A stretch of DNA of 64,000 bases from NCBI GenBank assembly GCA_964510805.1, contig CAZEDG010000002.1, positions 7,653 to 71,652 on the forward strand, in the 5' to 3' direction. This document shows positions 2,700 to 47,131 of the stretch, one piece after another. The stretch's first letter is position 1; each line of letters opens with the position of its first letter. Both the position numbers and the translations under genes were made by a program. The notes below the pieces were generated by a model, which worked only from the letters and a program-made list of their open reading frames with translations, did no database searches and was not told the DNA's origin. Origin of the DNA: an uncultured Candidatus Saccharibacteria bacterium. Its GTDB lineage: Bacteria; Patescibacteriota; Minisyncoccia; Phycocordibacterales; UBA5272.

Positions 2700-2920
2700 T
2701 ATATGGAAGAAGATAAGATTAACGAGGAAGTTGTACACAGATGGTAATGAGAGTGAAGAATGAAGTTAAACTAGATGTTAGAAAAGCGGATAACAGACCG
2801 CTCCGCTACAGACAACAGATAATAGACAATACACACGAGCGAGGCCGAAGGCCTCGCTCGTGTGTGTGTTGTGTTTTTATCTAAACTCTAAAGTCTAACT
2901 TCTAACATCTAGAGGCTACC
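2700..2920. repeat. MITE-like element, copy E2. It has a variant left arm (acagataacag type). The hairpin at 2837-2859 and the right arm at 2896-2920 are identical to E1.
   Basis: gagcgaggccgaaggcctcgctc followed by ctaaactctaaagtctaacttctaacatctag is identical to 849-932. The left part carries a gcggataacagaccgc palindrome. Confidence 0.7.
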
Positions 2921-5926: not shown

Positions 5927-6854
5927 CATGGCCACGTTCATCCGTCGCACCTTCGGCGCGACTCACTCCCTCATTGCAAAGATCCTTGTGATCTTCGCGC
6001 TGGGGATGATCCTCGTCGCCTGCGGTGGTGGCGGGTCCTCGACCCCGACGACCCCCACTCCGCCGGTCAAGACCCCGGTCGCCGGCGACTTCACGATGAC
6101 CCAGAACCCGTCGAACGGAGCAACCGGTGTCGCCGTGAACGTCAAGCCGACGATCACGATCAACGTGAAGGCCGGTACCTATGCCTCGGCGTCTTCGACC
6201 GAGACGTGCGCCGGGCAGACCGTCGAATCGGCGTTTGTTGCGCCGACAGTCTTCACCGGCACGGTTGAGCTTGCCTTGGTCAACAAGGCAAACTTGCCGT
6301 ATGCCACGACATGCGCGTGGAACGGCTCGGTGACTGTCGCTGGGATTGACGGTGGAGCTTCCTCCACCCAAAACTTCAGCCTCAGTTTCACCACCGAGAA
6401 CTGGTGGCCACCCAAGAAGGTGCTCGAGATCGGCGTGAAGGGTGGCGACACCCCTCCGCAAGAGATCCCGATGGAGACCAATCCGACCAACACCCCCGCC
6501 ATCGGCGGTGATGTATGGAAAGCGAAGGTTGCCGACACCACTATCCAAGGGTTCAAAGTTGGCATGAAGTTGACAGGCGTCAACAATGATGAGCTGTACG
6601 GCATGGTCTTTGTCAACCCATTGACGAAAAACCGTTGTGTTGCTCTTGTTTACGCGAAGGATGGTACCAGTATCTTCCAGGATCCTCGCAACTACGGAGG
6701 ATGCAGGACAACTATGTTCGATGCTTGGTGGGGAACCTCTGATGGGTATATCCTGCGTTACCCTTCACTCAGTAATCGCTGTTACAAGACAGTTTTCGTA
6801 CCCTCAAACGGTGGTTTCCAAGAAATCCTTCCTGACGTTCCTTGCCCAAATTAA
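5927..6854 (+). CDS. High-GC lipoprotein, probably acquired horizontally. It has a lipobox (LVAC), a Pro/Thr linker and Ig-like beta-rich domains.
   Basis: Start MATFIRRTF...ILVIFALGMILVACGGGGSSTPTTPTPPVKTP. GC is about 60% over 5927-6700 against a genome background below 40%. The ORF-track start at 5703 is rejected because the promoter and the AT-rich leader lie inside that extension. Confidence 0.65.
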
Positions 6855-9900: not shown

Positions 9901-10910
9901 GTGTCTCAGGCGGATCGCCATCTGGTACCCTTACCTCATCATCTAACTCATGTACTATTGCAACAGAAGACTCAACATGTGATGTAACCATGAGCTGGTC
10001 AACCAACTCACCTGTTGGTACAACAGAACTTATTCGCGACGGGCAGGTTGGAGCTCCTATTCCTGACGCTGTTGGTAATAACGTCTCTGATCAACTGATC
10101 CATGTTCCATACGAATCAGATGGTACAGTAGTCTACCAAATCTATAACAACAGTACGTCTCTTGCTTCGAAGTCAATCAATGTAAGTTGTGAGGCCGGAG
10201 CAAACAAATATGATACAGTATCAGGAACATGTGCTGACCCACAAGTGAACGGACTCATTGTAAGAGGTAACTACTATGATGACCCTGGTCATATCGAGTT
10301 CAAGTGTGGAGGATCAGATTCATACGAAGTAAGAATGGATCCAACTGGAGCAAACACTCTTGTACCTGGAGGAAGCGGAGTAAGTACTGGCGATAATCAA
10401 CTTCACAGTGTTTCGGTAAGCACAACACAGGATTATAAAATCATTTGTAAAAAAGGAAGTGTCGAAAAAACAATGACTACATCCTACACAAACCCAGCAG
10501 ACCGCCCACAGGTCGCACTCTCCTTCACCGCCGTGCCTAAGACTATTGAAGTTGGTGGCAAGGTAGTACTCAACTGGGATATCACCTATCCTGCACCTGC
10601 GTGTGTAATGACTGCACAAGTAGTATGTCCTAATGGTACCTGTAACCAGACACTGACAAGTTACCAGGCAGAGCTTAATGCAATGATTCAGTCAGGAAGA
10701 GTTGACCAAGTAGCAGGAAGTCAAACAACTCCAAGAACTATCGCGTCTTCTATCAGTACCGTAACCCCTGGTCACGAAACCACTGATCAGAAAGCAATCG
10801 GCAAGAAGACACTCAGTTCTGTACAAGGAACCACCGACTTCACGATTGACTGTGGAGGGAACAAGAAAGCATCTACTCGTGTCCGTGTTACAAGTAGCAA
10901 GGAGAACTAA
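6999..10910 (+). CDS. Giant secreted cysteine-rich repeat protein (1303 aa). It has about 20 CxxGxYC-type repeats of the ephrin-receptor-like/GCC2-GCC3 style, and C-terminal beta-rich (CARDB/Ig-like) domains.
   Basis: N-terminal signal/TM FLGSMFVIALLLLSS. Reiterated C-SPGQY..GSSC..C..GYYCPGGT units. PDLTIDTIYPTTVTSGVMTTFYTTIENRGTTNTG is CARDB-like. Confidence 0.7.
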   Translation: MYINMMNFINKVFLGSMFVIALLLLSSHIEIVYAGNTKTATYGDPLQLNYNTSGVNSCNNIDVPGGGGYALNGSVSANSSGNFDPGNASVGGIFTLTCIATNGSGPASDSATLTVNPLSCSPGQYTTGSSCVNCGQGYYCPGGTTARQNCEPGYYCPGTTESDHTPCLGGWSSGWNSTVCNPPSCYAGEYWGGSSCLTCTAGNYCPGDQTSHPCADGYTSSGGASSCSPRCTPGNYWTGGSGGSCATCPQGKTCDGTTTQTPCPAGKICDLGTAPGGGTLCTVGNYCPSGTTPGGGVQPPQACGGGMTSNPGATNSSQCFLPSCSPGQYLNASSCEQCTAGYWCDGSGSRTPCSAGTYCPAGTEPSGVNGPKTCPQNSYCPAQSGSPTSCETVGAGYVTNSGGATNAGQCHAPSCTSGDYWNGSSCTTCTAGYYCDGTSGGRTPCPEKFYCGPGTTEPTNPSNPPRTCTAGYMCDAGTTDSGAGSPTPCTQDHFCTGGNSGPSGSNPPTACSTIGTDFVTTGTGATASTDCHLPYCPSGNYWNTGTHACATCPEGKICDGTSAPQPCTAGYYCPAGTKPSGVDGPRNCPVGSWCDGNDGSGGGNTSNNGGYPPQPCLGGLTSPENSISSGACRPPTCPSGEYWNSTASSCKPCTSGNYCGGDGTQTPCPPGFVCGPTTTQPGGTNPPHSCPAGSSCPGGNTDPADTDTNTNPPIVCTANHYCPTGPIITDPGTDNPLPCPEGKWSTVGSSQLSDCQSSNPSGPDLTIDTIYPTTVTSGVMTTFYTTIENRGTTNTGASFYNLVYFADQTDGNGTISTTTPYNGLYPAYYTGKMGILGVSEATTTSARHAFTAPGSVKFCTDKQNQNDATGLVNEGTGENNNCTGWINIAISGVSSCSPGMYNNGSCVACPPGNFCSGGTTPSPCPSNTYCDGAGPGGIGNTPPGGIYPPVSCSGGFVSPQGSGSSGSCVSGGSPSGTLTSSSNSCTIATEDSTCDVTMSWSTNSPVGTTELIRDGQVGAPIPDAVGNNVSDQLIHVPYESDGTVVYQIYNNSTSLASKSINVSCEAGANKYDTVSGTCADPQVNGLIVRGNYYDDPGHIEFKCGGSDSYEVRMDPTGANTLVPGGSGVSTGDNQLHSVSVSTTQDYKIICKKGSVEKTMTTSYTNPADRPQVALSFTAVPKTIEVGGKVVLNWDITYPAPACVMTAQVVCPNGTCNQTLTSYQAELNAMIQSGRVDQVAGSQTTPRTIASSISTVTPGHETTDQKAIGKKTLSSVQGTTDFTIDCGGNKKASTRVRVTSSKEN

Positions 10911-12528: not shown

Positions 12529-15189
12529 GTGCAACTTAACTCAGAAGTAGCTTTACTTTCAAGACTAACCAAAGATCATGCATCTGGTCTTGCTCGTCTT
12601 TCGATTACCACAATCAAGGATTTGCTTTTTCACTTTCCTGTTCGTTATGCTGACATGCGAGAGATTGGAAGTACAAAGACACTTGCAAAAGGAGAAGCGG
12701 TTACACTCTTTGGCATACTCGAGAAGGTCACCGTCAAGCGAAGCTTCCGTGGCCATATTCCCATGACCGAAGCCAGGCTTCGTGATGCATCAGGAACACT
12801 TCGTCTTGTATGGTTCAACCAAGCCTACATTGGCAAGATGTACACCGATGATACAAAAGTAAAGATTCAAGGCATTATCCAAGAAGACTCGCGAGGATTC
12901 TTCTTGACCAACCCTAGCATAGAAAAGATACAAGCAATCCCAGAGCCAACTGAGAGTCTCTTTACAATAGATATAAGCGAAGACGGAAAATCAAAAGAAC
13001 AAGAACCTCTCTTCCTCACCCCTGTCTATCCAGAAACAAAAGGAGTTTCTTCGCTCTACCTCTACACACTTATCAAAAAAATTTTTACAAGTAATCTCAT
13101 AGACACACTAGAGGATCCAATACCAGAGGATATTCTCAAGAAGCTTCATCTTCCATCACTCAAAGATGCTCTCACGTATATACATTTTCCTAAAGAGCAC
13201 ACTCATACAGTTATAGCGAGAAAGCGATTTGCCTTCGAGGAGATCTTCTACCTTCAGATAAAACAAAACAAAGAAAAACAGGAAGCAAAGAACTCTCTTG
13301 CGTATCCAATCACTGTACAAAAAAAAGAGCTGAAGGAATTCATGGAGAGGTTTCCTTTTACACCAACACAGGGGCAATATAACGCAATTGACTCCATACT
13401 CTCTGATCTCAAGAAGACCGAGCCAATGGGAAGACTTCTTGAAGGAGATGTTGGAAGTGGCAAGACATTCGTCGCTGCGACTGTTGCATATATGACACTC
13501 CTTCATGCAAATGAAAGCTCTGGTAAGAGACTTCAGGTTGCTTACATGGCACCAACTGAGATACTCGCCAAGCAACACTTCGAGAGCTTCATAACCTATC
13601 TCCAGGGTACCGGTATCGAGATCGGACTTCTCACAGGATCCGGGTGCAAAAAATACCCAAGCAAAGGAGGAGATGAAGTAACCAATATATCAAAAGCACA
13701 GCTTCGCACATGGCTTCATGATGGCCGTGTCTCTATCGTCATAGGTACTCATGCGCTTATCCAAAAGACAATTACCTTCGACTCTCTCGCGCTCATCATT
13801 ATCGATGAACAGCATCGCTTCGGTGTTAAGCAACGTAAACTCTTAGCGCAGAAAGGACGCAGAAATAACGCAGAACAAGCGGAACAAGTAGAAGAATATA
13901 ACCATACTCTTCTTGATGAAAAAAAATCCAATCTTCTCTATGAGACTACAACATATACATTACGCGAAGCATTGTTTACAATAAAAAAAGAACTAGGCGG
14001 TGGCCACAAAGAGATAATCTACGAAAGAGCACTTGAAGAAGAACTAACACGAAAAGGAATACGTTTTTCTCGTCAAGTATCTCTACCTGTCCTATATCGT
14101 GATAAGCAAATTGGAACCTATAGACCTGACTTTATCATTGAAGATAGTATAATTCTTGAATTAAAAGCATTATCTTTTATTGGAGCAGAAGCAAAAAAAC
14201 AACTTTGGACTTATCTAAAAAATACAAAATATTCACTTGGTATTTTAGTGAACTTTTCTCCTACAGAATTACAAATTCAAAGAGTTGTGTACGACACAGC
14301 AAGAACTTCTTCCGCGTCAGTTCCGCCCAGTTCTGCGGTGTCTGCATATAAAATCCCTCACCTTCTCTCAATGACCGCAACACCTATTCCACGCACACTT
14401 GCGCTCACCATGTTCGGGGATCTTGATCTTACTGTGCTTGATGAAGTGCCAAAGGAACGCAAGCGTATCATAACCGAAATTGTACGATCATCTAAACGAA
14501 AAGAAATCTACGAAAAAGTGCGCGAAGAGTTACGAAGTGGTCGCCAAGTGTATGTTATTTGTCCACGTATCGAAGAGGATGACGAAGCGCTTGCAGATAA
14601 GCAAATGCTACGAAGTGTAAAAGAAGAAGCAAAGCGATTAAGTGATACTGTCTTCCCAGAATATGTGATCGATATCCTTCACAGCAAAATGAAGAAAGAA
14701 GAAAAAGAAGAAGTGATGCAAGATTTTCTTGATAAAAAATCAGATATCTTAGTTGCAACCTCAGTGGTTGAAGTTGGAGTGAATGTGCCGAATGCTTCTG
14801 TGATTATTATCGAGCACGCTGACCGCTTCGGCCTTGCACAGCTTCATCAGTTACGTGGTCGCGTCGGAAGAGCAGAACATCAATCATACTGTTACCTCTT
14901 CACCGAAGGAGTAAGTGAAGTTACGTATAACAGACTTATCTCTTTAGTAAAAGCAAAGAACGGCTTCGAGTTAGCTGAGATGGACATGCTTGCACGCGGT
15001 ATCGGCACCTTAAATGATGGCAAGCAATGGGGGCTAAGTGACTTAGCAATGGAAGCAATCAAGAATCCTAAGCTTGTTGAGATTGCACAACAAGAAGCAA
15101 AGTTACTCATAGAAAAAGATACAAGTCTTAACAATCACCCTCACCTTCGCGACCACATCAAGACACACAGTGATGTGCATATGGAGTAG
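12529..15189 (+). CDS. recG: ATP-dependent DNA helicase RecG carrying an in-frame GxxExxY-family PD-(D/E)XK domain insertion.
   Basis: LLFHFPVRYADM wedge-region motif. Helicase motif I GDVGSGKTFVA, motif II IIIDEQHRFG and motif III MTATPIPRTL. VATSVVEVGVNVP and QLRGRVGR are also present. An extra segment of about 167 aa lies between motifs II and III. Confidence 0.85.
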   Translation: MQLNSEVALLSRLTKDHASGLARLSITTIKDLLFHFPVRYADMREIGSTKTLAKGEAVTLFGILEKVTVKRSFRGHIPMTEARLRDASGTLRLVWFNQAYIGKMYTDDTKVKIQGIIQEDSRGFFLTNPSIEKIQAIPEPTESLFTIDISEDGKSKEQEPLFLTPVYPETKGVSSLYLYTLIKKIFTSNLIDTLEDPIPEDILKKLHLPSLKDALTYIHFPKEHTHTVIARKRFAFEEIFYLQIKQNKEKQEAKNSLAYPITVQKKELKEFMERFPFTPTQGQYNAIDSILSDLKKTEPMGRLLEGDVGSGKTFVAATVAYMTLLHANESSGKRLQVAYMAPTEILAKQHFESFITYLQGTGIEIGLLTGSGCKKYPSKGGDEVTNISKAQLRTWLHDGRVSIVIGTHALIQKTITFDSLALIIIDEQHRFGVKQRKLLAQKGRRNNAEQAEQVEEYNHTLLDEKKSNLLYETTTYTLREALFTIKKELGGGHKEIIYERALEEELTRKGIRFSRQVSLPVLYRDKQIGTYRPDFIIEDSIILELKALSFIGAEAKKQLWTYLKNTKYSLGILVNFSPTELQIQRVVYDTARTSSASVPPSSAVSAYKIPHLLSMTATPIPRTLALTMFGDLDLTVLDEVPKERKRIITEIVRSSKRKEIYEKVREELRSGRQVYVICPRIEEDDEALADKQMLRSVKEEAKRLSDTVFPEYVIDILHSKMKKEEKEEVMQDFLDKKSDILVATSVVEVGVNVPNASVIIIEHADRFGLAQLHQLRGRVGRAEHQSYCYLFTEGVSEVTYNRLISLVKAKNGFELAEMDMLARGIGTLNDGKQWGLSDLAMEAIKNPKLVEIAQQEAKLLIEKDTSLNNHPHLRDHIKTHSDVHME
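13950..14300 (+). other. GxxExxY (PDDEXK_3-like) nuclease-fold domain embedded in RecG.
   Basis: GGGHKEIIYERALEEELTRKGIRFSRQVSLPVLYRDKQIGTYRPDFIIEDSIILELKA...LGILVNF matches the GxxExxY family architecture: G-x-x-E-x-x-Y, then D...(D/E)xK. The segment is more AT-rich than the flanking recG sequence. Confidence 0.7.
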
Positions 15190-15419: not shown

Positions 15420-15800
15420 CTCAAAGTGCATCCACCTGGACCAGGAACCTGCGGACCAGTCTTGTATACTAAGACGTATTTTTTATGCACTCCTGTCTTA
15501 TAAACATGGTGCGCCCACCTGGACTCGAACCAGGGACCAGTCGTGTATACTAAGTCGTATTTTGATTTCATTCGTACCTTATCCTCAAAGTGCATCCACC
15601 TGGACTCGAACCAGGGACCAGTCGTGTATAAGACGACGGCTCTACCAACTGAGCTATGGATGCACTTTGTTGACAATGTACTCATTTATCAAAATAAGAC
15701 GACGGCTCTACCAACAAAGCTTAGGCGCACTATGTTTATAATCCCCTCGTTTTCAAAAATAAGACGACGGCTCTATCTGCAAAACTTAAATCCAACAAAA
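15420..15800 (-). repeat. Cluster of partial tRNA copies around the tRNA above: two degenerate 3' halves and two degenerate 5' halves.
   Basis: 3'-half copies are at about 15430-15480 and 15505-15560; the latter reads ...CCTGGTTCGAGTCCAGGTGGGCGCACCA with an encoded CCA. 5'-half copies are at about 15700-15740 and 15755-15800 (aagacgacggctctacc...). ORFs 15389..15685 and 15543..15869 are artefacts of this array. Confidence 0.6.
15591..15663 (-). tRNA. tRNA with anticodon UAU (predicted tRNA-Ile, AUA-decoding; tentative isotype).
   Basis: The reverse complement folds as acceptor GCATCCA/TGGATGC, D-arm GCTC-AGTTGGTA-GAGC, anticodon stem GTCGT/ACGAC with loop CTTATAC, variable loop TGGTC, and T-arm CCTGG-TTCGAGT-CCAGG, with discriminator A. 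No CCA is encoded. Confidence 0.55.
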
Positions 15801-18959: not shown

Positions 18960-19351
18960 GGGGGGTGTACTTTGGCTTTGATAATAAGAATATGTCTTGT
19001 GTGCTGTATCGAGATCGCCTAAGCACTCGTTAACGTTTAGGTACCCATGTTGCAAAAACAACTGGCAAGGCTATTCCTTCACCATATATGGCAGGAATGG
19101 TTCCAGCATTCGCCTAAATTACTGGCCAATCTGGTGTCTCCTTCTATCGTATCTACGGATAGATTGTAGGCAATATAACAGTAGAGGTAGATTATCTTGT
19201 TGCATAGCAAAATAATCGAAATAATTATGCTATACCTATGATGCTTTTGTTTGCTTCTGATATCATGGCGCGAAACACACTAAGCAAACTATATACAGTA
19301 GAAACATTCTTCATACCTTGTTACACGCGGGTTCGAATCCCGCCACCTCCA
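18960..19351 (+). ncRNA. ssrA: tmRNA (SsrA).
   Basis: 5' GGGGGTG pairs with 3' CACCTCC and includes the G3:U wobble. The 3' tRNA-like end is GCGGGTTCGAATCCCGCCACCTCCA. An internal reading frame ...GKAIPSPYMAGMVPAFA-TAA at 19064-19117 is the putative tag, with a possible GCA resume codon at 19052. No CCA is encoded. ORF 18997..19215 is spurious. Confidence 0.8.
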
Positions 19352-19354
19352 CTG

Positions 19355-21297: not shown

Positions 21298-21900
21298 AGG
21301 GAGAAATGGCTGAGTGGGTCAAACGTAAACTGCTTTACGTTTAACGATAAGCATGAAGAGCTCTTCATGCGCAATCCGGCAAACACGAAGCCATTGTTCC
21401 GTAGGACGACAAATAGTCCCGAAGTAGTGCAAGGACTTATATTTGGAGAAATGGCTGAGTGGTTGAAGGCACCTGACTCGAAATCAGGCATAGGAGCAAT
21501 CCTATCGTGGGTTCAAATCCCACTTTCTCCGCAGATTGATACGCAGTGAAAATCTGCGGAGAAAGTGGTGCCATGCTCACAAGCATGGTACGTGGGATTT
21601 GAACGAAACGCCGGTCTACGAAAATGAGATGTAAAAATTGAGTGCAGTATTTTTACATCTCATTTTTGTCGACGTTTCTCGGGGTCGAGAAGTTGAGTGT
21701 TTTCTGAACAACAACGTTGTAAAAGAAAATACCAACTTGGTGACCAATCCCACTTTCTCCGCAAAATAATGAATCTGAAGCGAATGCTTCAGATGATTAT
21801 ATTTTGCGAGAGAAAGTGGGATTTGAACTGAGTCCGATGCGAAGCCGGTGTATGTCCTCATACATCGTGAGGACGAGGCTTAGGCGAAAGTTAAGAGTGT
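21298..21900. repeat. Array of partial copies of tRNA-Ser ends in both orientations around the intact tRNA-Ser.
   Basis: A 5'-end copy ggagaaatggctgagtgggtcaaacg at 21302-21327 carries a hairpin gcatgaagagctcttcatgc. The inverted T-arm copy gtgggatttgaac is at about 21590. A 3'-end copy aatcccactttctccgca is at about 21748. The inverted copy gagagaaagtgggatttgaactgagtcc is at about 21810. Confidence 0.6.
21445..21531 (+). tRNA. tRNA-Ser (anticodon CGA).
   Basis: GGAGAAA-TG-GCTG-AGTGGTTGAA-GGCA-CCTGACTCGAAATCAGG, a long variable arm, T-arm GTGGGTTCAAATCCCAC, acceptor TTTCTCC and discriminator G. Confidence 0.8.
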
Positions 21901-36631: not shown

Positions 36632-37186
36632 CTACAACTGCATCTCTTTAAGAACATGCTGAAGATGGGTGCGGACTACCTTTTCGTTAAGCACTAATCT
36701 TGTATAGAGTTCATCAAGTGAAAGCGTGTGATATTCTTGTATCCCTTTAACCCCAAGCGTTGTAATATCGATATACCCAAGATCAGCAAGAATAATACAA
36801 TAAAGAAGGGTTCTAGCGAACAAGTCACCGTAGGAAGAACTTCCTTTAAAAAAAGAAAGCAATCTATCATAAAGTAAGCTGTGTGATCCTTCACCCTTGA
36901 TAAATCTTTTAAGAAGCTGAGTTCCTTCCTGAAGGTATCTAAAACTTTGACTATCTTTTTCGGCACCAACAATTCTCCAAACCTCTTTACCTTTTACAAG
37001 AGTAAGTAGCGTCACCGAACGAGGAAGCACATGCGGGCGTAACTTACTCTCAAGTTTCCTGATACTCTTGGCGTGACACATAAGAAGTCCGAACTCTCGT
37101 GTAAAAATCTTAAACACACGATCATGTTCTCCTTGATCGTACATCTCAAGCACAATACCCTGTGTCACATATTTCTCAATCGCCAT
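36632..37186 (-). CDS. recO: DNA repair protein RecO (short form).
   Basis: The N-terminal OB-fold pattern QGIVLEMYDQGEHDRVFKIFTREFGLL fits RecO. Confidence 0.6.
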   Translation of the reverse strand: MAIEKYVTQGIVLEMYDQGEHDRVFKIFTREFGLLMCHAKSIRKLESKLRPHVLPRSVTLLTLVKGKEVWRIVGAEKDSQSFRYLQEGTQLLKRFIKGEGSHSLLYDRLLSFFKGSSSYGDLFARTLLYCIILADLGYIDITTLGVKGIQEYHTLSLDELYTRLVLNEKVVRTHLQHVLKEMQL

Positions 37187-40100
37187 GACCTAAGGTAAGT
37201 GAAGCGAACACAGAAGAAGATGAAAGCTCGATTACTTTACCTTTACAATCTTTGTCATAGATAATCTCTTCTGCGCGAACTACTTTCTTAAGATCATATA
37301 TTTCTTCATCAGAAAGTTCTATAGAAAGCGCAATTGAATTAACCGTTTCTGAGGAAGAAAGATTATGCTCCTTACGTAACTCTTGTAACCCTCGCTGAAT
37401 CTTACGAATATCACCTTCTCGCTTAAGCGCTTCTGTGATTGTTACATCAAGCACAACATCTTCTTTTTGATTTTTATCATAGAACACTTCCTTTACGTTG
37501 AGCTCTTCTTCAATAAGGAAGATAAGTTCTGGGTCAACTTCTTTGTTAAAAGTAACAGAGCTAAGTGGTTGCTTAACAGAGAGCTTATGTTCTGTACGCT
37601 TCATCAACCCAAGAGAGACAAGCTCTCGCACCTCTTTCATAGAAGCAATAAGTTCTTTATCAATAAATCCCTGCTCTGGCCACTTCTCAAGATGTACTGA
37701 TGCATAATCACCGCGAAGTTCTTGATATGTTCTTTCTGCAAGAAAAGGCAATACTGGGGCAACAGTCTTAGCAAGCGTAAGAAGTACATAACGAAGTGTG
37801 CTGTACGCTTCATACTCATCTTCTTCACCAGTTAAGCCTTTGAGGCGATCACGAGAACGTCTTGTATACCAGATAGAGAGATCGTCAACAATTTGATCAA
37901 TACCCTTGGTTGCTTCGTCTAACTTGTACGCATCATATCCGTCTGTTGCTTCCTTCACAAGCTCATGAACTCTACTTATCATCCATCTATCCAAAGGATT
38001 AGATGATGACGTTCCTGCTTGCACTTGCACGTTACCCATCTTGTAAAGCGCTACCACGTTATCAAATCGCATGATACATCGCTTGTATACTTCATCAAGT
38101 TCTTTATCACTGAAGTTAATCGACTCACCTTTTACAACAGGAGAAGACATGAGGTACAAGCGAAAAGCGTCAGCGCCAAATCTCTCCACAAGAAGCATCG
38201 GATCTGTATAATTATTAAGACTCTTACTCAACTTCTTTCCATCAGATGCATTGATTAGACCATTACAAATCACGTGCTTGTACGGCGCAATATCGAAAAG
38301 TCCTACACCTAAGTTAATAAGTGAATAGAACCATCCTCTTGTCTGATCCATACTCTCAGCAATAAATGTAGCTGGATACGCCTCCTTAAAGAGATCTTTG
38401 TTTTCGAATGGATAATGAATAGAAGCAAAAGGCATAGACCCAGACTCGAACCAACAATCGAATACATCAGAAATTCTTGTATACACTTCTCCACCTACAA
38501 TAAGCTCCACTCCATCGATATAAGGACGATGAAGATTGATTGCGCCAGTTGCGTCACGTGGCACAGAAGCCGGCACAAAACTAATCACTTGACCATTGTG
38601 TACATTAAGCCCCTCTTCTTTGTGCTTATTTGCAATAATCTCTTCGCTTGTTGCAAGCTCTGCTTCATGAATACCCATATATACCATAGAGCCATGTGTC
38701 ACAAAAAGTATCTTCTTGCCTTCATATTTCTCTTCACATGACGCAACCACTTGCATAAATCTATGTGCCCCATCTCTAAATGATTCACCTCCAGGAACTC
38801 TCTCATTAAGATGCTCATGAATACTTCTTATAGAACGAAAAGTTGTCGCGTTCATTGATTCATATTCTCCAAAATGGAACTCTCGCAACCTCTCATCAAC
38901 CACGATAGTTGCCTGTGTTCCTTTTGCAATAATTGCTGAAGTTTCTCTTGTACGAAGAAGTGGTGAAGTGATGATGACATCGACACCAAGCTCTTGTATC
39001 TTATTACCCGCAAGCACTGCTTGCTCAATACCTTTCTCAGTAAGTGTATTAGTCTCATCTCCAAGACTATCCAATCTATCAAGCACATTGAACACCGACT
39101 CGCCGTGACGCATTGCAAAGTAGGTATTCTTAGGTTTCTTGGTTGCACATGAAGCAAGCTCCTTGAGGGAACCAACTACGTGAACCTTACTTCCATCATG
39201 ATTCTTCCACACAGGAAGAGGTGCTCCCCAATACCTCGAACGAGACACCGCCCACTCACGAGCGCCTTCTAACCACTTACCAAATCGTCCATCACGAATA
39301 TGCTCAGGAGTCCATCCGATTGCACTATTTTCTTTGAGAAGCTTTTCTTTCATCTTAGGCACATCAACAAACCATGATGATGTAGCGTAGTTAAGAAGCG
39401 GAGTCTTACATCTCCAACAAAGTGGATATGAGTGCACAATCTTATGCTTCTCAAAAAGTTTTCCATTATGGGCAAGCCATTTAATAATCTCAACATCAGT
39501 TGACTGAGTATCTCCTGCTTTCTTAACCTTAAGCCCTTTAAAATCTTCTACATCATCAGTAAATGTTCCATCCATCTTCACATGCTTGATAACAGGAATA
39601 TTATGTTCCTTTGCAAGTTGCATGTCCTCATCACCAAACGCAGGAGCTTCATGCGCAATACCGGTACCAGCATCTTCGGTAATAAAATCTGCATGCCAAA
39701 TCTTCCAAATGTTTTCTTTGTGTTCAAGTTCTTTATCTTTAAAATACGGAAACAACGGGAGATACTTCTTGCCAACAAGAGTGCTTCCTGGAAATTCACC
39801 AACAATCTCCTTTGATTCGTTATCTTTAAAATATTCTTCGACTTTACTCTTTGCAAGAATATAACACTTCGTGATTCCTTCTTGTGTACTTTTTACTTTT
39901 ACATACACAATATCTTTATGAAGTGCAAGCGCTGTATTACCTGGAAGTGTCCATGGGGTTGTTGTCCACGCAAGCACGTACGTTCCCTTTTCTTCTTCGA
40001 GTTCAAATTCTGCTGTCACAGAAAGATCAGTCACATCAGTATACTCAAGACCAACCTCTGATTGTGCAAGAGGAGTCTCACACCTCGGACAGATATGCAT

Positions 40101-40643
40101 CATCTTGCTTCCTTCATAGGCAAGCTTCTTCTCATAGAGAGACTTCCAGGCAAACCAGATACTCTCCGTATAGGTTGCGTCCATTGTCTTATATGGATGA
40201 CTCATGTCAGCCCATCTTCCAAGACGAGGAATTATTTTTTTCCATTCCTCTTCATACTGAAGCACACTTGCGTATGCATCAGCATTGAACTTATCGATAC
40301 CAAACGCTTCGATGTCTTTTTTGCTTGCAAGACCGAGCTTCTTCTCAATGAGATTCTCAATCGGAAGACCATGACAATCCCACCCCCATACACGACGAAC
40401 CGAATTACCTCTCATTGTCTGATAGCGAGGGATGAGATCCTTCACTGTTCCTGCCATAAGAGAACCATGATGAGGAAGACCTGTTGCAAATGGAGGACCA
40501 TCATAAAAAGAAAAAGTTCCTTGTGGTTCACCTCCTCCCGGCTGTTCGATAGACTTCTCGAAAATATGATTCTCTTCCCAAAAGCGAAGTGCCTTCTCTT
40601 CTTTTTCTGAAACAGAGAGTGGTTTTTGGTTATTGTCTTGCAT
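37176..40643 (-). CDS. ileS: Isoleucyl-tRNA synthetase (type 2) carrying an inserted histidine-phosphatase (PGAM-like) domain.
   Basis: PHHGS (HIGH). CP1 editing region WTTTPWTLPGNTALA. KLSKS-type KMSKS region GKKLSKSLNN. HRPYID. The ORF-track start at 40685 is TTG inside the leader terminator; the ATG at 40641-40643 (MQDNNQ) is preferred. Confidence 0.85.
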   Translation of the reverse strand: MQDNNQKPLSVSEKEEKALRFWEENHIFEKSIEQPGGGEPQGTFSFYDGPPFATGLPHHGSLMAGTVKDLIPRYQTMRGNSVRRVWGWDCHGLPIENLIEKKLGLASKKDIEAFGIDKFNADAYASVLQYEEEWKKIIPRLGRWADMSHPYKTMDATYTESIWFAWKSLYEKKLAYEGSKMMHICPRCETPLAQSEVGLEYTDVTDLSVTAEFELEEEKGTYVLAWTTTPWTLPGNTALALHKDIVYVKVKSTQEGITKCYILAKSKVEEYFKDNESKEIVGEFPGSTLVGKKYLPLFPYFKDKELEHKENIWKIWHADFITEDAGTGIAHEAPAFGDEDMQLAKEHNIPVIKHVKMDGTFTDDVEDFKGLKVKKAGDTQSTDVEIIKWLAHNGKLFEKHKIVHSYPLCWRCKTPLLNYATSSWFVDVPKMKEKLLKENSAIGWTPEHIRDGRFGKWLEGAREWAVSRSRYWGAPLPVWKNHDGSKVHVVGSLKELASCATKKPKNTYFAMRHGESVFNVLDRLDSLGDETNTLTEKGIEQAVLAGNKIQELGVDVIITSPLLRTRETSAIIAKGTQATIVVDERLREFHFGEYESMNATTFRSIRSIHEHLNERVPGGESFRDGAHRFMQVVASCEEKYEGKKILFVTHGSMVYMGIHEAELATSEEIIANKHKEEGLNVHNGQVISFVPASVPRDATGAINLHRPYIDGVELIVGGEVYTRISDVFDCWFESGSMPFASIHYPFENKDLFKEAYPATFIAESMDQTRGWFYSLINLGVGLFDIAPYKHVICNGLINASDGKKLSKSLNNYTDPMLLVERFGADAFRLYLMSSPVVKGESINFSDKELDEVYKRCIMRFDNVVALYKMGNVQVQAGTSSSNPLDRWMISRVHELVKEATDGYDAYKLDEATKGIDQIVDDLSIWYTRRSRDRLKGLTGEEDEYEAYSTLRYVLLTLAKTVAPVLPFLAERTYQELRGDYASVHLEKWPEQGFIDKELIASMKEVRELVSLGLMKRTEHKLSVKQPLSSVTFNKEVDPELIFLIEEELNVKEVFYDKNQKEDVVLDVTITEALKREGDIRKIQRGLQELRKEHNLSSSETVNSIALSIELSDEEIYDLKKVVRAEEIIYDKDCKGKVIELSSSSVFASLTLGHGD
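38540..39150 (-). other. Histidine phosphatase (phosphoglycerate-mutase-like, RHG motif) domain inserted in IleRS.
   Basis: FAMRHGESVFN...ITSPLLRTRETS...FVTHGSMV. About 205 aa lie between ...IGSLKEL and DxHRPYID, where typical IleRS has a linker of about 15 aa. Confidence 0.65.
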
Positions 40644-40659
40644 GGTGTTTGTAGTATCG

Positions 40660-40885
40660 ATAAAAATAATAAAGCCCTCACACAAAGACTATCTTTGTGC
40701 AAGGACGAGTGAGATCGTGGTACCACCTTGCTTTACTTCTCTTCGAAGTCTTATTTAGTCGGGTTCTACTTGTCTTACATAGGACTTATGTATTAGTCCT
40801 GTTACAAAAATAGTAAGAGGTTCTTCCCACACCAAGGAGTGATTAGTTCCTTCATCGTGTATATATCTTTATACTAACAAAAAGA
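40660..40885 (-). promoter_or_regulatory. T-box-like riboswitch leader of ileS.
   Basis: On the minus strand: a GA-motif stem I region gatgaagg; the T-box-like box gcaaGGTGGTACCAcg (RC of 40716-40731); a terminator cacaaaga-tag-tctttgtg with extended stem (RC of 40676-40704) followed by a U-tract about 20 nt before the ATG. Confidence 0.5.
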
Positions 40886-40891
40886 AAAAAA

Positions 40892-40920
40892 GACGCAAGC
40901 AGAATCGCCCTGCTTGCGTC
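40892..40920 (-). terminator. Terminator of the upstream minus-strand gene.
   Basis: gacgcaagcag-aatcgcc-ctgcttgcgtc with an adjacent T-tract on the minus strand. Confidence 0.5.
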
Positions 40921-40921
40921 T

Positions 40922-41221
40922 TTAGTGGATGATGCCGTCCTTTGAAAGAAAGACAATTACCACTGAATTATCTTCTTCAGATGACGAATAAGAGAGATTG
41001 CCTTTAAGCATTTCTAGCGCCAAACGATCTGCGATATAATGCATAAGCACTTCATCAGGAATCTTTTCAAAAGCTTTGAGACTTCTCATCTTTTCGGAAA
41101 GTCCTTCAAAAGTAAGAGTCTCTTGTTGGTTGCATCTTGCTTTTTCAAGAATTGTACTCAAACTAACAGAGAGACAATGCTCGAGATGCGTTCTTTCTTC
41201 ATCAGTGTTCATGTTAAGCAC
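40922..41221 (-). CDS. Hypothetical protein.
   Basis: The ORF is 99 aa. Confidence 0.4.
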   Translation of the reverse strand: MLNMNTDEERTHLEHCLSVSLSTILEKARCNQQETLTFEGLSEKMRSLKAFEKIPDEVLMHYIADRLALEMLKGNLSYSSSEEDNSVVIVFLSKDGIIH

Positions 41222-43661: not shown

Positions 43662-44240
43662 ATGATCGACTCAAAACGTATCGCACTTATTGGTGCACAC
43701 ACCAAGGACTCATTGTCTTACGGGCTTGGTAATGGTATGCCATGGCCTCGTGGAGCACTTAAGAAAGACATGCTTGAGAGATTCAAGCCAATCACTTTAG
43801 GTGCACCAGAAGGCAAAAAAAATCTTCTCATTGCCGGCAATAGCACCTTCGTTGCTATGGGAGGGAAACCTCTCCCAGGAAGATACATGATTGGTGTATC
43901 AAGAAAGGTGGAAGAACCTGTTACGCTTCCTAGCGGTGCAGTACTTGTACCCAGTTTTGGAGAAGCGCTTCGTTATGCGGAAACACTCACAGATCTACAC
44001 AAAGTATTCTTTATCGGAGGAAAAAGCTCTTGGGAAGAAGGGTTCCGTCACGCATCAGAAGCATTCATCACCGTTGTTCATAAAGAAGTAGAACGAGATG
44101 ATCTTATCACACTCGACCAGTCACTTGAGGTAATGGCAAAAGCTTCTGGATTTGTCATGATAAGCCAAGAACATACAGTTGATGAATGGGGTGGACCAGT
44201 GCGAGTTGATTTCCTAGAATATTTTAAAGACAGGAGTTAG
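43662..44240 (+). CDS. folA: Dihydrofolate reductase-like protein.
   Basis: IALIGAHTKDSLSYGLGNGMPWP is a DHFR N-terminal-like motif. It lies in a thymidylate cluster. Confidence 0.6.
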   Translation: MIDSKRIALIGAHTKDSLSYGLGNGMPWPRGALKKDMLERFKPITLGAPEGKKNLLIAGNSTFVAMGGKPLPGRYMIGVSRKVEEPVTLPSGAVLVPSFGEALRYAETLTDLHKVFFIGGKSSWEEGFRHASEAFITVVHKEVERDDLITLDQSLEVMAKASGFVMISQEHTVDEWGGPVRVDFLEYFKDRS

Positions 44241-44267
44241 AAGAAGCGAGGCAATGCCTCGCTTTAT

Positions 44268-44687
44268 TTATTTCCCTGTACTTCCAAAACCCCCTTCTCC
44301 ACGCACAGTGTCGCTTAATTCATCAACTTCGATCACGTCACATAACTCCACTTTTTGAATAAGCATTTGGGCAACTTTTTGACCATGAAGAAATGTATAT
44401 GACTCATGAGTAAGGTTATGCATGATTACCTGAACCTCTCCACGATACCCGGCATCCACAACACCACCAAGAGTCTTTAGTCCTTTTGAACCAATTGATG
44501 ACTTATCCCAAATAAGTCCAACATACCCGACTTCCATTTCTAGCGCAACACCAACAGGAATCTTTTTTGTCTCCCCTCCTTGGATTACATGACTACCATA
44601 TGCATAGAGATCAATCCCTGCATCCTCCTTGTGCGCACGAGTTGGAATCACCGCATCTCTATAGAGTTTTTTTATCTGTAGTTTCAT
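44268..44687 (-). CDS. dut: dUTP diphosphatase.
   Basis: AGIDLYA...GLIWDKSSIG...GVVDAGYRGEV...RGEGGFGSTG are the dUTPase motifs. Confidence 0.9.
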   Translation of the reverse strand: MKLQIKKLYRDAVIPTRAHKEDAGIDLYAYGSHVIQGGETKKIPVGVALEMEVGYVGLIWDKSSIGSKGLKTLGGVVDAGYRGEVQVIMHNLTHESYTFLHGQKVAQMLIQKVELCDVIEVDELSDTVRGEGGFGSTGK

Positions 44688-44803
44688 TATCTATAATTGT
44701 AGCACAAGGTGATTCACTATATTTTGACAAAACCTATCAAAAACGTAGAATGACGCTAGACCTCAATTGGGGAGCAGTACTATTTAACAACAAGGAGTAT
44801 CGT

Positions 44804-45274
44804 ATGCAAGATCTCAGCAATACTCGCTCAAGCGAGATGCGTGAACGAATGGTCTTACTTCAGGAAAATGGCTGGTGTCTTTTCTGTCAGCAAGGTTTTA
44901 CGCTCATGAAAAAAACAAAACTCCATGATGGAAAGCATTGGTATGTGACCGTAAATGACGCTGCCTACCAAGGAGCAACTACTCATGTTATGGCGGTACC
45001 CAATCGACACATAACAGACCCTGTAGAGATGACAACCGAGGAGCTCGTAGAGCTTTTTCAGGTCGTGGTTCCATGGCTCCGTAAAGAACTTAACATGAGA
45101 GGTCTGAGTGGACTATTTCGTTTTGGTGACACTAAACGAACCGGCTCAACCATTCATCATCTTCACTTTCACTTTGTTGAAGGTGAGGAGCGTGTTGATC
45201 ACAACCATCCACCAGTTTGGGCTGTTGTCGGCTTTCAGACTGGATATGAACCACCCCCTCAAGGAGAACTTTGA
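44804..45274 (+). CDS. HIT-family (histidine triad) nucleotide-binding protein.
   Basis: CLFCQ N-terminal motif. Histidine triad HHLHFHFV. The start is at the ATG at 44804, which has SD aaggag; the longer ORF-track start overlaps dut. The stop overlaps the thyA-like ATG in an ATGA-type junction. Confidence 0.6.
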   Translation: MQDLSNTRSSEMRERMVLLQENGWCLFCQQGFTLMKKTKLHDGKHWYVTVNDAAYQGATTHVMAVPNRHITDPVEMTTEELVELFQVVVPWLRKELNMRGLSGLFRFGDTKRTGSTIHHLHFHFVEGEERVDHNHPPVWAVVGFQTGYEPPPQGEL

Positions 45275-46188
45275 TGATTGATCTCGGTTATATTTCGTAC
45301 CTTCCTCCTCATGAGCGGAAGATTGATACTCAGTACTACGACCTGATGAAAGAGGTATACCTTCACGGAAAAATCGTGAAACCGATTCAGGGTGGCGAAG
45401 CACGAATGGTTGCCGGAGCGCAACACCATTACCGCGCAGAGAATGGGTTCATCATGGAAACCATGAGAGACCTATCTGGCTCACTTATTGGATCACTTGC
45501 TGAACATATGGGTTTCTTGAATGGATGCGAAACATTAGAAGAACTTGTTGCGTTCGGTATGCCGCGTGTCTGGTGGGAGCGTTGGGTGACTGCTCAAAAA
45601 TGTGCAGACTTTAACCTCCCTTCAGGAAGCCTCGGAACTGCTTCATACGGCCCCGTCTGGACGAAAATGCCAACTCGTGATGGTGGCACCTTCAACCAGG
45701 TTGACGCACTACAAGACGGCATCAAAGCACGGCCTCATTTGAGAACATGGAGACTTTCTCCGTGGTTTGCTCCTGAAGTCATTGGACCGTTCGGAACCCG
45801 TCGAGTTGTGGTTGCACCGTGTCATGGAGAAATCCACGCACTTGCTGATCCTTTAACGAAGGAACTAACCATTCATCACTGGCAACGAAGTGGTGATCTA
45901 CCTGTTGGGGTGAAGTTCAACCGAATGCAGTACTTTGCATTCGGGATGATGCTTGCGAAGATTATGGGGTATAAGTTCGTTGAACTTATCTATACCTTCT
46001 CAGATGCTCACATCTATGAAGAACAGTACCCGTATGTAGAAGAACTACTCTCGCGTGAACCCAGGATTTATCCGACGGTAACGATCGAAGCTAATCATGA
46101 GCGTTTGCAACAATTCCGTCCAAGAGATTTCAAACTCGGTGATGACTACAACCCTCATCCGAAAATGAATATTCCAACACCTACTTGA
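45274..46188 (+). CDS. thyA: Thymidylate synthase ThyA-family enzyme (divergent; dUMP-type Asn retained).
   Basis: Active-site VAPCHGEIH aligns with PCH. QRSGDLPVGVKFN aligns with QRSCDVFLGLPFN. The C-terminal DYNPHP aligns with YDPHP. GC is about 48%, above background. Confidence 0.7.
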   Translation: MIDLGYISYLPPHERKIDTQYYDLMKEVYLHGKIVKPIQGGEARMVAGAQHHYRAENGFIMETMRDLSGSLIGSLAEHMGFLNGCETLEELVAFGMPRVWWERWVTAQKCADFNLPSGSLGTASYGPVWTKMPTRDGGTFNQVDALQDGIKARPHLRTWRLSPWFAPEVIGPFGTRRVVVAPCHGEIHALADPLTKELTIHHWQRSGDLPVGVKFNRMQYFAFGMMLAKIMGYKFVELIYTFSDAHIYEEQYPYVEELLSREPRIYPTVTIEANHERLQQFRPRDFKLGDDYNPHPKMNIPTPT

Positions 46189-46220
46189 AGAATCTTTTAG
46201 TAATCTGTAAAAGATAACAA

Positions 46221-46289
46221 GACCCCCAACCATTCGGTTGGGGGTCTATTTTATATAAAAGAAAAATCGGCGCATGCGCCGATTTCATG
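46221..46289. terminator. Convergent terminator pair.
   Basis: gacccccaacc-attc-ggttgggggtc followed by tatttt on the + strand for thyA. atcggcgc-atgc-gccgat followed by a T-tract on the minus strand for the deaminase-like gene. Confidence 0.55.
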
Positions 46290-46297
46290 TTGCCGAG

Positions 46298-47131
46298 CTA
46301 CAATTCGACATATATTAATTCAACACCATGGGAACGAAGGGTTTTCTGACCATTCAGATTCGAATAACCGCCCGTAAAAAAAACTTTCCTGAACCCAGCA
46401 ACAACAACGGGTGGTGCGCACAAGTTACAAGGGAATGTAGTTACGTAAAGCTCAGCACCTTCAAGCGAAATACCACGTTTTGCAGCTTCCGCAATAAGCG
46501 CTTGCTCACCATGAAGTGCACTTGTCACTTCAATGAACTCACCAGGCTTGAAACTGTCCCTCGGATCACCATCCATATATGGGACGTATTCATGTGGGTA
46601 ATGCTTGTTATAAGCAACCAAACAAACATTATCTGAAGTGATTGCCATTGCTCCAACCTGTCGCCACCAATCAGAGCTTCGCCTTGCAAGGCGAAGCAAG
46701 TTTTGCATACAAATACTGCAATGAGCATACTCCGGATCTCCTTTTCGTACAACACGATCAGCTTCCGGTTGTACAAAACCAACCGCTGAGGATTTACTCC
46801 AATCCCAGCGAAGAAATGCACTTCCCCAAATTACTTCTCTGGTAAAAGAAAGACTTCTTGTAACATCGTCTTCTGGTACATAAATCTGAGTTTCATGCGG
46901 AAACTGGTTTTCATGAAAATCAGAAAAAGGTAATACCTTGTACCCGAGAGGAGCCAAGCATACAGCAAGCTCTTTTAGGTCAAGTGAGCGTATTTCTCGT
47001 ACAAGATGAGGAAAGCTGGGCACGTCAGATGCTTGCACAATATAGATTGTGTCAGAATTAGTTGATGCAAGATAATCGAGATACCCGCGATGAATCACGG
47101 GCATATAAGCAATTACAATATTTTTGCTCAT
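46298..47131 (-). CDS. Two-domain protein: an unknown N-terminal domain fused to a C-terminal cytidine/dCMP deaminase-like zinc-binding domain.
   Basis: HGEQ...(26 aa)...PCNLC matches the H(A/G)E-x(n)-PCxxC deaminase zinc motif. The N-terminal 170 aa are unassigned. Confidence 0.5.
   Translation of the reverse strand: MSKNIVIAYMPVIHRGYLDYLASTNSDTIYIVQASDVPSFPHLVREIRSLDLKELAVCLAPLGYKVLPFSDFHENQFPHETQIYVPEDDVTRSLSFTREVIWGSAFLRWDWSKSSAVGFVQPEADRVVRKGDPEYAHCSICMQNLLRLARRSSDWWRQVGAMAITSDNVCLVAYNKHYPHEYVPYMDGDPRDSFKPGEFIEVTSALHGEQALIAEAAKRGISLEGAELYVTTFPCNLCAPPVVVAGFRKVFFTGGYSNLNGQKTLRSHGVELIYVEL

Follow-up and report, generated by a model that had tools for sequence, protein, structure and literature searches.

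Why would an isoleucyl-tRNA synthetase (IleRS) carry a second, complete enzyme inside one of its own subdomains, and on what would that enzyme act? The question is raised by the ileS gene in a window of 64,000 nucleotides (the whole stretch of DNA analyzed here, positions 7,653 to 71,652 of contig CAZEDG010000002.1, assembly GCA_964510805.1) from an uncultured Candidatus Saccharibacteria bacterium. A preliminary description of the window, made from the sequence alone, had noticed a histidine phosphatase domain inserted in frame in the product of this gene. Few proteins are as conserved as aminoacyl-tRNA synthetases, and extra catalytic domains are rare in the bacterial ones. To our knowledge, no complete second enzyme nested in a synthetase subdomain, and kept throughout the evolution of a very large bacterial radiation, has been described. 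A search of the full-text literature (subscription-only literature being outside its scope) returned no description of an IleRS with a nested histidine phosphatase, in line with the initial statement that the architecture is undescribed.

This does not make the sequences new, nor the fusion unique to this genome. The fusion is already visible in databases, where one relative has been named 'isoleucyl-tRNA synthetase/phosphohistidine phosphatase SixA/...GNAT' by the Joint Genome Institute (JGI), and both synthetase accessory domains and histidine phosphatase fusions are known kinds of arrangement. What is unusual here is the nesting of one domain in another, its very deep conservation, and the multiplicity of sites and copies.

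A complete histidine phosphatase nested in CP3

The ileS gene is an uninterrupted open reading frame (ORF) of 1169 amino acids on the reverse strand (window 37176-40685), identified by TIGR00392, Pfam and PDB matches; all features of the gene given below are on this strand. The product scores 818.6 bits against TIGR00392 (cut-off 621.4), in two stretches split by the insert, and Pfam also finds tRNA-synt_1 in two stretches with His_Phos_1 in between. The alignment with human IleRS and with insert-less type-2 IleRS (IleRS2) delimits an inserted segment of about 200 residues (aa 517-716, 38538..39137), to which the interval first proposed, 38540-39150, corresponds. Residues 516 and 717 on either side of it align with residues 494 and 498 of the human chain. 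The distance from GSxxEL to DLH(R/K)xx(I/V)D is about 9 residues in insert-less IleRS2 (n=7; P0340, P0342, P0344, P0345, P0390, P0393 and P0394 in our protein labels) and about 206 in the window IleRS. Hence, the initial claim of a short linker in orthologues holds for IleRS from outside the Candidate Phyla Radiation (CPR), but not for the CPR relatives, which carry the segment.

The equivalent of the insertion point in yeast IleRS is around residue 490, inside CP3, which spans residues 459-526 in yeast (PMC7955072) and residues 473-534, with a beta-beta-alpha-alpha topology, in Candida (PMC7191050); the names of the subdomains follow these two studies. By homology, the insertion site is thus assigned to the CP3 surface subdomain and not to the catalytic core proper, where it had been placed initially. 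The segment is flanked by VHVVGSLKEL (aa 501-510), of which GSLKEL (aa 505-510) is the end of the first half of CP3, and by NLHRPYID (aa 717-724), where CP3 resumes. The re-entry junction, VPRDATGAINLHRPYID (aa 708-724, 38514..38564), has four residues, P709, R710, D711 and G714, that are invariant in the Paceibacteria-type clade, and the stretches that span the junctions at the two ends of the insert are GSLKELASCATK and ATGAINLHRPYIDGVELIVGGEVYTR. The insert (0.39-0.46) and its flanks are alike in GC content. A frameshift, a chance similarity and a chimeric assembly were all rejected, since the ORF is unbroken, its GC content is uniform and the same architecture occurs in hundreds of independent assemblies. 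Two shadow ORFs inside the insert (38415-38741 on the forward strand and 38852-39175 on the reverse strand) were set aside as by-products of the conserved coding region.

The insert contains a complete His_Phos_1 domain (PF00300, E=9.7e-32, 110.6 bits for a gathering cut-off of 21.7), as had been read from its motifs, and all the catalytic residues are present. Its core covers aa 524-679 (38649..39116) according to Pfam, the alignment with PhoE, the AlphaFold2 (AF2) model and Foldseek. The motif FAMRHGES (aa 523-530) includes R526 and H527 of the RHG signature (39105..39110), H527 being the predicted phospho-accepting nucleophile, and is followed by N533, a residue of the phosphate pocket (39087..39089). 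SPLLRTRET (aa 574-582) includes R578, the second phosphate-binding arginine, of the SPxxR motif (38952..38954). The predicted general acid, E602, is in ERLREFHFG (aa 598-606, 38868..38894), and FVTHGS (aa 661-666) has in its THG motif the second active-site histidine, H664 (38694..38696). R526, H527, N533, R578, E602 and H664 do not vary in any of the 120 homologues or of the 81 aligned rows. E634 of the GGE[ST] motif (38784..38786) is conserved in 120/120 homologues and in 79 of the 81 rows, the other two having Asp. The catalytic set aligns with the corresponding residues of PhoE, including E602 with the Glu of 'DERLREIHLG'. A degenerate pseudo-enzyme was rejected, given the invariance of the six active-site residues, and the alignments indicate that the active site is under purifying selection.

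The predicted structures lead to a similar picture. Modeled alone by AF2, the insert has a mean predicted local distance difference test (pLDDT) score of 94 and a predicted TM-score of 0.91. In the model of the full-length protein, a check that the preliminary description had proposed, most 10-residue blocks of the insert exceed a pLDDT of 90. The C-terminal tail of the insert (aa 680-716, 38538..38648), which leads the chain back to the insertion point, is modeled with high pLDDT as a helix (680-685) and a strand (700-703). The nearest solved protein by sequence is the broad-specificity phosphatase PhoE/YhfR (1ebb and 1h2e; E=4e-17 for 1ebb). Compared with the PDB by Foldseek, the insert is nearest to CobC, Rv3214, a riboflavin-pathway histidine-family phosphatase (HFP), PhoE and Rv2419c, with a probability of 1.00 and TM-scores of 0.65-0.75 to CobC, Rv3214, PhoE and dPGMs, the cofactor-dependent phosphoglycerate mutases. 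The list is a mix of short-form phosphatases and mutases, with E-values of about 1e-13 to 1e-11, and singles out no substrate. We are confident that the predicted fold is that of a short-form, PhoE/CobC-like branch-1 histidine phosphatase.

A phosphatase of no characterized family

The insert belongs to the histidine phosphatase superfamily but to no characterized family. It scores below the equivalog cut-offs of dPGM (85.3 against 225 for NF038349, dPGM_arch; 38.3 against 320 for NF002217, PRK01112), of GpmB (79.4 against 261 for NF002901), of CobC (74 against 162.9 for TIGR03162; 50.4 against 250 for NF011580) and of phosphoserine phosphatases (53.3 against 350 for NF045917, PspA; 48.6 against 277 for NF009994). 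Bona fide dPGM, CobC, PspA and SixA identities were rejected because every equivalog cut-off was missed. The term 'PGAM-like', used initially, should not be taken to mean 'mutase', since all the dPGM cut-offs are among those missed.

This bears on one possible explanation of the nested domain, namely that it is the glycolytic cofactor-dependent phosphoglycerate mutase (PGM) and fills a PGM step apparently missing in some Parcubacteria. The best NCBIfam match of phosphatase type is indeed the archaeal-type dPGM model NF038349 (E=5e-24), and PGM seems to be absent in some clades of Parcubacteria (PMC7304191). However, the cut-offs of dPGM and GpmB are missed by factors above 2.5, the nearest neighbors in both sequence and structure are phosphatases (PhoE, CobC, Rv3214), and the catalytic Glu is followed, as in PhoE, by a hydrophobic residue (F/Y/I). 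In addition, the IleRS of Gracilibacteria carry the domain, often in multiple copies, even though a curated genome of Gracilibacteria lacks glycolysis altogether (PMC7304191). The nested domain is probably not a 2,3-bisphosphoglycerate-dependent mutase, as judged from its sequence, and we regard the glycolytic explanation as improbable.

The domain shares with Geobacillus stearothermophilus PhoE (YhfR), CobC, Rv3214, Rv2419c, HFP and iPSP a length of about 200 residues, the RHG, SPxxR, E-x-x-x-G and HG motifs, and the fold. PhoE-type short-form phosphatases are free-standing, whereas the copy in the window is embedded in another enzyme and has no equivalog-level match. Two known systems have a His_Phos_1 domain fused to an unrelated enzyme. 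The insert matches the phosphatase half of the bifunctional RNase H/acid phosphatase (NF005567, Rv2228c type) at E=2e-21, below the cut-off, and, weakly, PFKFB2 of the PFK-2/FBPase-2 type (5htk, E=8e-5). In both of these systems the fusion is end-to-end, whereas the insert described here is nested inside a domain. The closest non-fused relatives are the free-standing P0122 and P0153 and the tandem di-domain proteins of P0123 type (about 400 aa), which are 35-46% identical to the IleRS-embedded copies. They have the same catalytic set but are independent genes, known from metagenomes, and a member of the P0122 cluster has been named 'broad specificity phosphatase PhoE' by JGI.

Distribution and inheritance of the insert

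The preliminary description implied that the insertion was peculiar to this protein. Yet, the PF00300-in-IleRS architecture is present in 120/120 of the best database matches (60-77% identical, 1138-1214 aa), whose named taxa are Parcubacteria, Pacebacteria and similar. A scan with a profile of the insert, which covered one genome per GTDB species, returned 80 loci, and 76 of them are IleRS-embedded, with insert identities down to 28%. These loci include Nomurabacteria, Taylorbacteria, Zambryskibacteria, Minisyncoccia and RAAC4_OD1_1, a genome from 2013; the remaining four are free-standing proteins of Clostridium. Finally, a search with P0149 showed that almost all the IleRS of Gracilibacteria, Peregrinibacteria and Peribacteria have PF00300. 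Relatives both near and far thus carry the segment, which is what the preliminary description had itself named as a refutation of its claim, and the insertion is a lineage-wide, vertically inherited feature.

The divergence of the insert supports such inheritance. Mean identity to the window sequence is 42% for the insert and 78% for the N-terminal core of IleRS, and the pairwise identities of the two are correlated (Spearman 0.55, 2016 pairs). Because pairwise insert identity tracks core identity, the insert seems to have been vertically co-inherited with the synthetase. A one-off or recent horizontal insertion was rejected, given that every listed relative has the insert and that its divergence follows that of the core. 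The comparisons thus indicate an insert that is anciently fixed, vertically inherited and catalytically constrained. Our best reading is that it was fixed before the diversification of Parcubacteria/Paceibacteria, and the copy at the same position of CP3 in Gracilibacteria and Peregrinibacteria suggests that the insertion predates their split.

These patterns also bear on the idea of a selfish, neutral or decaying insertion, or of an artefact of assembly or gene calling. It has some appeal, since related IleRS host domains of the type found in mobile elements (DUF559 and an IS200-like Y1 transposase) and since RecG in the same window has an insert of its own, to which the preliminary description had likened the IleRS phosphatase. 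Between its DEAD and Helicase_C lobes, this RecG (886 aa, 12529-15189, forward strand) carries a PD-(D/E)XK nuclease domain (PF13366, PDDEXK_3, 'GxxExxY protein', aa 474-586, E=1.8e-33). The parallel does not extend to their distributions. The RecG insert is found in about 22 of the 120 nearest homologues and is missing in about 98 RecG of Paceibacteria (717-761 aa) that are equally similar in the helicase parts, a patchy pattern that fits the sporadic gain and loss of a possibly mobile insert, and hence a different phenomenon from the phosphatase, which is universal among the relatives and has an invariant active site. The catalytic residues of the phosphatase are invariant in more than 200 sequences, down to 28% identity of the insert, the insert is in every listed relative, and hundreds of independent assemblies agree on the architecture. 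There is no compositional anomaly, and a search of the insert revealed neither a nuclease nor a Hint/splicing domain, His_Phos_1 being its sole Pfam match. The last result and the presence of the insert in every listed relative also set aside an insertion of the intein or homing-endonuclease type. A selfish, relic or artefactual origin is hardly credible, and the conservation pattern effectively refutes it.

Further copies and further enzymes in the IleRS of the CPR

The insert alone was searched against 1.84 billion representatives and gave 635 matches at E<=1e-10. Among the best 150 of these 635 representatives, 65 are IleRS-linked, 60 are free-standing (<=260 aa) and 25 have 261-500 aa (mostly tandem di-domains); IleRS is the sole multi-domain host of this subfamily of phosphatases. 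P0122, one of the free-standing proteins, has 205 aa, is 39% identical to the insert, C-terminal tail included, and matches its residues 3-194. Its gene (6001-6618 of locus L081, forward strand) is between adk and secY, on the opposite strand, in a ribosomal-protein gene cluster. The existence of such free-standing homologues of about 205 aa with the tail suggests that a whole phosphatase gene was captured.

The phosphatase has been added to IleRS more than once. Some IleRS have a tandem double His_Phos_1 in CP3 (P0258, P0145, P0206, P0138), others have copies at a second site (site B), in the interval between DCWFESG and KMSKS (P0149, P0157, P0128, P0121), or at a third site, between KMSKS and the anticodon-binding domain (P0149, P0133, P0128, P0141, P0290), and one IleRS fragment has four copies (P0134). 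The IleRS of Gracilibacteria and Peregrinibacteria have one to four copies over these three surface sites, and the contigs that carry the P0149 cluster measure up to 1.06 Mb. Nearly every copy retains the core catalytic residues, and individual copies show a few substitutions. Pairwise identities between copies are star-like (33-40%), and the only resolved group is the tandem-CP3 clade, where first copies are 52-54% and second copies 39-45% identical among themselves.

Phosphatases are not the only additions. The nearest insert-less IleRS2 have 1030-1106 aa and, where named, are from outside the CPR (e.g., Verrucomicrobia). The IleRS of Gracilibacteria and Peregrinibacteria reach 1370-1860 aa through more in-frame domains (P0278, P0289, P0290, P0338, P0339, P0355, P0361). 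The additional nested domains in CPR IleRS are GNAT, the nuclease-like DUF559, a P-loop kinase (AAA_33/AAA_18/Zeta_toxin) and an alpha/beta hydrolase, in addition to an IS200-like Y1 transposase domain inside CP1, and they occupy at least three recurrent sites. At site B, where its relatives have His_Phos_1, P0338 has a non-homologous HAD phosphatase; of the 120 matches listed, one cluster shows this replacement. The kinase inserts (P0339, P0355, P0361) have Pnkp1 (4xrp, E=7e-4) and the Ser-tRNA(Sec) kinase PSTK (E=9e-10, far under the cut-off) as their best matches. The GNAT insert matches RimI-like models weakly. There is a curated precedent for an IleRS with an unrelated enzyme domain, the NCBIfam model NF040702 (ileS_w_GNAT). 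The window IleRS scores 286 bits against it (cut-off 1999) and has no GNAT match in Pfam. The GNAT-bearing CPR IleRS that we tested are also under its cut-off, which implies that the model describes another lineage.

Such repeated additions raise the possibility that the tethered phosphatase acts on something that IleRS binds or makes. It could heal the 3'-phosphate or 2',3'-cyclic phosphate ends of tRNA(Ile) for charging, in relatives perhaps together with the PNK/PSTK-like kinase, or it could remove the reaction products AMP and pyrophosphate. A coupling of this kind would account for IleRS being the only multi-domain host among the representatives just described, for the recurrence of the phosphatase at three sites, in up to four copies, for the HAD phosphatase at site B and for the best matches of the kinases. 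The position of the insert would also fit, as CP3 comes immediately after the CP2-3 linker (AREWAVSRSRYWG, aa 475-487, 39225-39263 in the window), which in yeast IleRS lines the pocket for the tRNA CCA end and reveromycin (PMC7955072). On the other hand, the variability of position and copy number makes a defined channel to the active site less likely, the HAD phosphatase occurs in one cluster, the kinase matches are weak, and the window IleRS has the phosphatase only. Furthermore, the Paceibacteria-type phosphatase domain is uniformly acidic (net charge -8.9 +/- 2.4), so that a small-molecule substrate fits better than RNA. We know of no branch-1 histidine phosphatase that acts on RNA ends. 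Although it deserves serious attention, we find a function coupled to IleRS unlikely.

The types of enzymes inserted suggest still another role, in resistance. IleRS is a target of antibiotics, and the inserts may modify inhibitors or toxic mimics of the aminoacyl-adenylate at the synthetase. GNAT, P-loop kinase, phosphatase and alpha/beta hydrolase are classic classes of enzymes that modify small molecules, and GNAT enzymes such as MccE and RimL detoxify aminoacyl-nucleotide antibiotics. But the GNAT insert resembles the RimI-like models only weakly, no IleRS inhibitor that we know of is a phosphomonoester, and the proposal is pure inference, with no support within the window. We consider it very unlikely.

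A broader proposal joins several of these elements. The IleRS of the CPR would be a modular platform with its own accessory enzymes (a histidine phosphatase or, convergently, a HAD phosphatase, and sometimes a PNK/PSTK-like kinase and a GNAT) acting on ligands of IleRS, for example to heal damaged 3' or 5' ends of tRNA ahead of charging or to neutralize toxins and inhibitors that target tRNA(Ile) or IleRS. In such a system of tRNA repair or defense, embedded in the synthetase, the phosphatase of the window would be the original module and the one that has spread most widely. We put this forward as a speculation that we ourselves find rather doubtful.

The host synthetase and its gene

The synthetase in which the phosphatase is embedded belongs to the type-2 (eukaryote/archaeal-like) subclass. 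Its matches in the PDB (9w01, 7d5c, 8c8u, 1ile) have E-values from 5e-202 to 8.5e-189, the best being human cytoplasmic IleRS (9w01, E=5e-202), while the type-1 IleRS of S. aureus (1ffy) is a weaker match (2e-83). Foldseek with the full-length AF2 model has the same type-2 proteins as top matches. The order of domains (Rossmann fold, CP core, CP1, CP2, CP3, anticodon-binding and C-terminal domain) is shared with the human and yeast cytoplasmic IleRS, with Priestia megaterium IleRS2 and with Thermus thermophilus IleRS. These type-2 enzymes, of the mupirocin-resistant class, have 3-9 residues in the middle of CP3 where the window IleRS has about 200 extra. Like the yeast and Candida enzymes, the window IleRS lacks the zinc-binding Cys that T. 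thermophilus IleRS has in CP3.

The class I landmarks listed in the preliminary description, i.e., the HIGH-like PHHGS, the CP1 editing motifs, KLSKS and the anticodon-binding domain, are all intact. The N-terminal part of the synthetase (aa 1-516, 39138..40685) goes from the first half of the Rossmann fold, with PHHGS (aa 71-75, 40461-40475), through the first half of CP3, and comprises the CP core, the CP1 editing domain, with TTTPWTLPGN (aa 241-250) and GTGIAHEAPAFG (aa 340-351), and CP2. The isolated editing-domain chains 1wk8 and 1ue0 align with aa 215-421. The C-terminal part (aa 717-1169, 37179..38537) comprises what remains of CP3, the second half of the Rossmann fold with DCWFESGSMP (aa 743-752), KLSKS (aa 818-822, 38220-38234), the anticodon-binding domain (Anticodon_1, PF08264, aa 899-1043, 37557-37991) and a DUF5915-like C-terminal domain, whose match is slightly under the cut-off (26.8 for 27). 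P71, H72, G74, K818, S820, K821 and S822 are invariant across 60 homologues, and TTTPWTLPGN, GTGIAHEAPAFG and DCWFESG are kept among homologues. From the intact motifs and the 78% mean identity of the N-terminal core, we infer that the protein aminoacylates tRNA(Ile) and edits Val.

The nominal start of the ORF, TTG at 40685, is probably not the true one, and translation would rather begin at ATG 40643 (M15), giving a protein of 1155 aa. We doubt the TTG because homologues begin at the position of M15 and because a hairpin with a U-run overlaps it. This hairpin, of 15 bp and followed by TTTATTATTT (40674..40706), is in the leader of ileS, where it may serve as an attenuator or leader element. 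An Rfam scan of the window found no family match in ileS or upstream of it, including the leader hairpin. Another terminator-like hairpin upstream of ileS (40889-40923, reverse strand) closes the upstream gene.

Other genes of the window

The two other synthetases of the window, MetRS and ArgRS, are of ordinary size. The only Rfam matches at gathering level are a tmRNA (18961-19354, forward strand, 79 bits) and tRNA genes at 15591-15663 (reverse) and 21445-21531 (forward). Two tandem ORFs of 586 aa (928-2688 and 2916-4676, both on the reverse strand) encode proteins that are 100% identical, without a Pfam match and with a signal-peptide-like N-terminus and a predicted membrane segment; they are either a very recent duplication or a repeat artefact of the assembly. 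An ORF of 1303 aa (6999-10910, forward strand), whose sole Pfam match is a sub-threshold CARDB, probably encodes a large surface protein of the sort that CPR genomes typically have. Finally, a nucleotide-salvage-type cluster (43662-47131) encodes DHFR, a HIT/DcpS_C-like protein, thymidylate synthase and a dCMP/cytidine deaminase, the latter with an N-terminal extension of about 140 aa that has no Pfam match.

Discussion

Taken together, the evidence leads us to favor, with a probability of roughly 60%, a bifunctional protein made of an intact type-2 IleRS and an autonomous nested phosphomonoesterase that is carried by the synthetase as a scaffold and has a small phosphorylated metabolite or nucleotide as substrate. 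The insert would fold independently within the surface subdomain CP3. His527 would attack the phosphate to form a phospho-histidine intermediate, with Arg526, Arg578, Asn533 and His664 holding the phosphate and Glu602 protonating the leaving group, and the likely substrate would be a small phosphorylated metabolite or a nucleotide. IleRS would provide an essential and constitutively expressed scaffold whose surface loops tolerate the insertion of whole domains. The comparisons and models establish the architecture, the place of the insert, how widely it is distributed, the invariance of its active site and its fold; from these we infer the catalytic activity, the class of substrate and a geometry that is not critical relative to the active sites of IleRS. 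A loose coupling to the synthetase is favored by the variable position and copy number, by the fast evolution of the parts that face the substrate and by the acidity of the Paceibacteria-type domain.

Some observations weigh against this interpretation. Among the best 150 of the 635 representatives, this subfamily of phosphatases has no multi-domain host besides IleRS, copies have accumulated at additional sites of IleRS, and in one lineage a HAD phosphatase occupies one of these sites. A sole host, repeated copies and a replacement by HAD are not what a pure model of a passenger on a convenient scaffold predicts, and they hint at a functional link between the phosphatase and IleRS.

The fusion has practical consequences. 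It can mislead automated annotation, where such proteins appear as 'class I tRNA ligase family protein', 'hypothetical protein' or 'GNAT family N-acetyltransferase', and it can distort pathway calls that are based on domain matches. For protein engineering, it illustrates where a class I synthetase can accept insertions in nature. Should the substrate be metabolic, the domain may close a gap in the reconstructed metabolism of the CPR, such as the PGM step reported missing in some Parcubacteria. If it is linked to IleRS, this would be a new kind of synthetase-associated processing of tRNA or of reaction products. The invariant active site and the repeated additions, at three sites, in up to four copies and with one replacement by a HAD phosphatase, suggest that the activity matters for these ultra-small, host-dependent bacteria.

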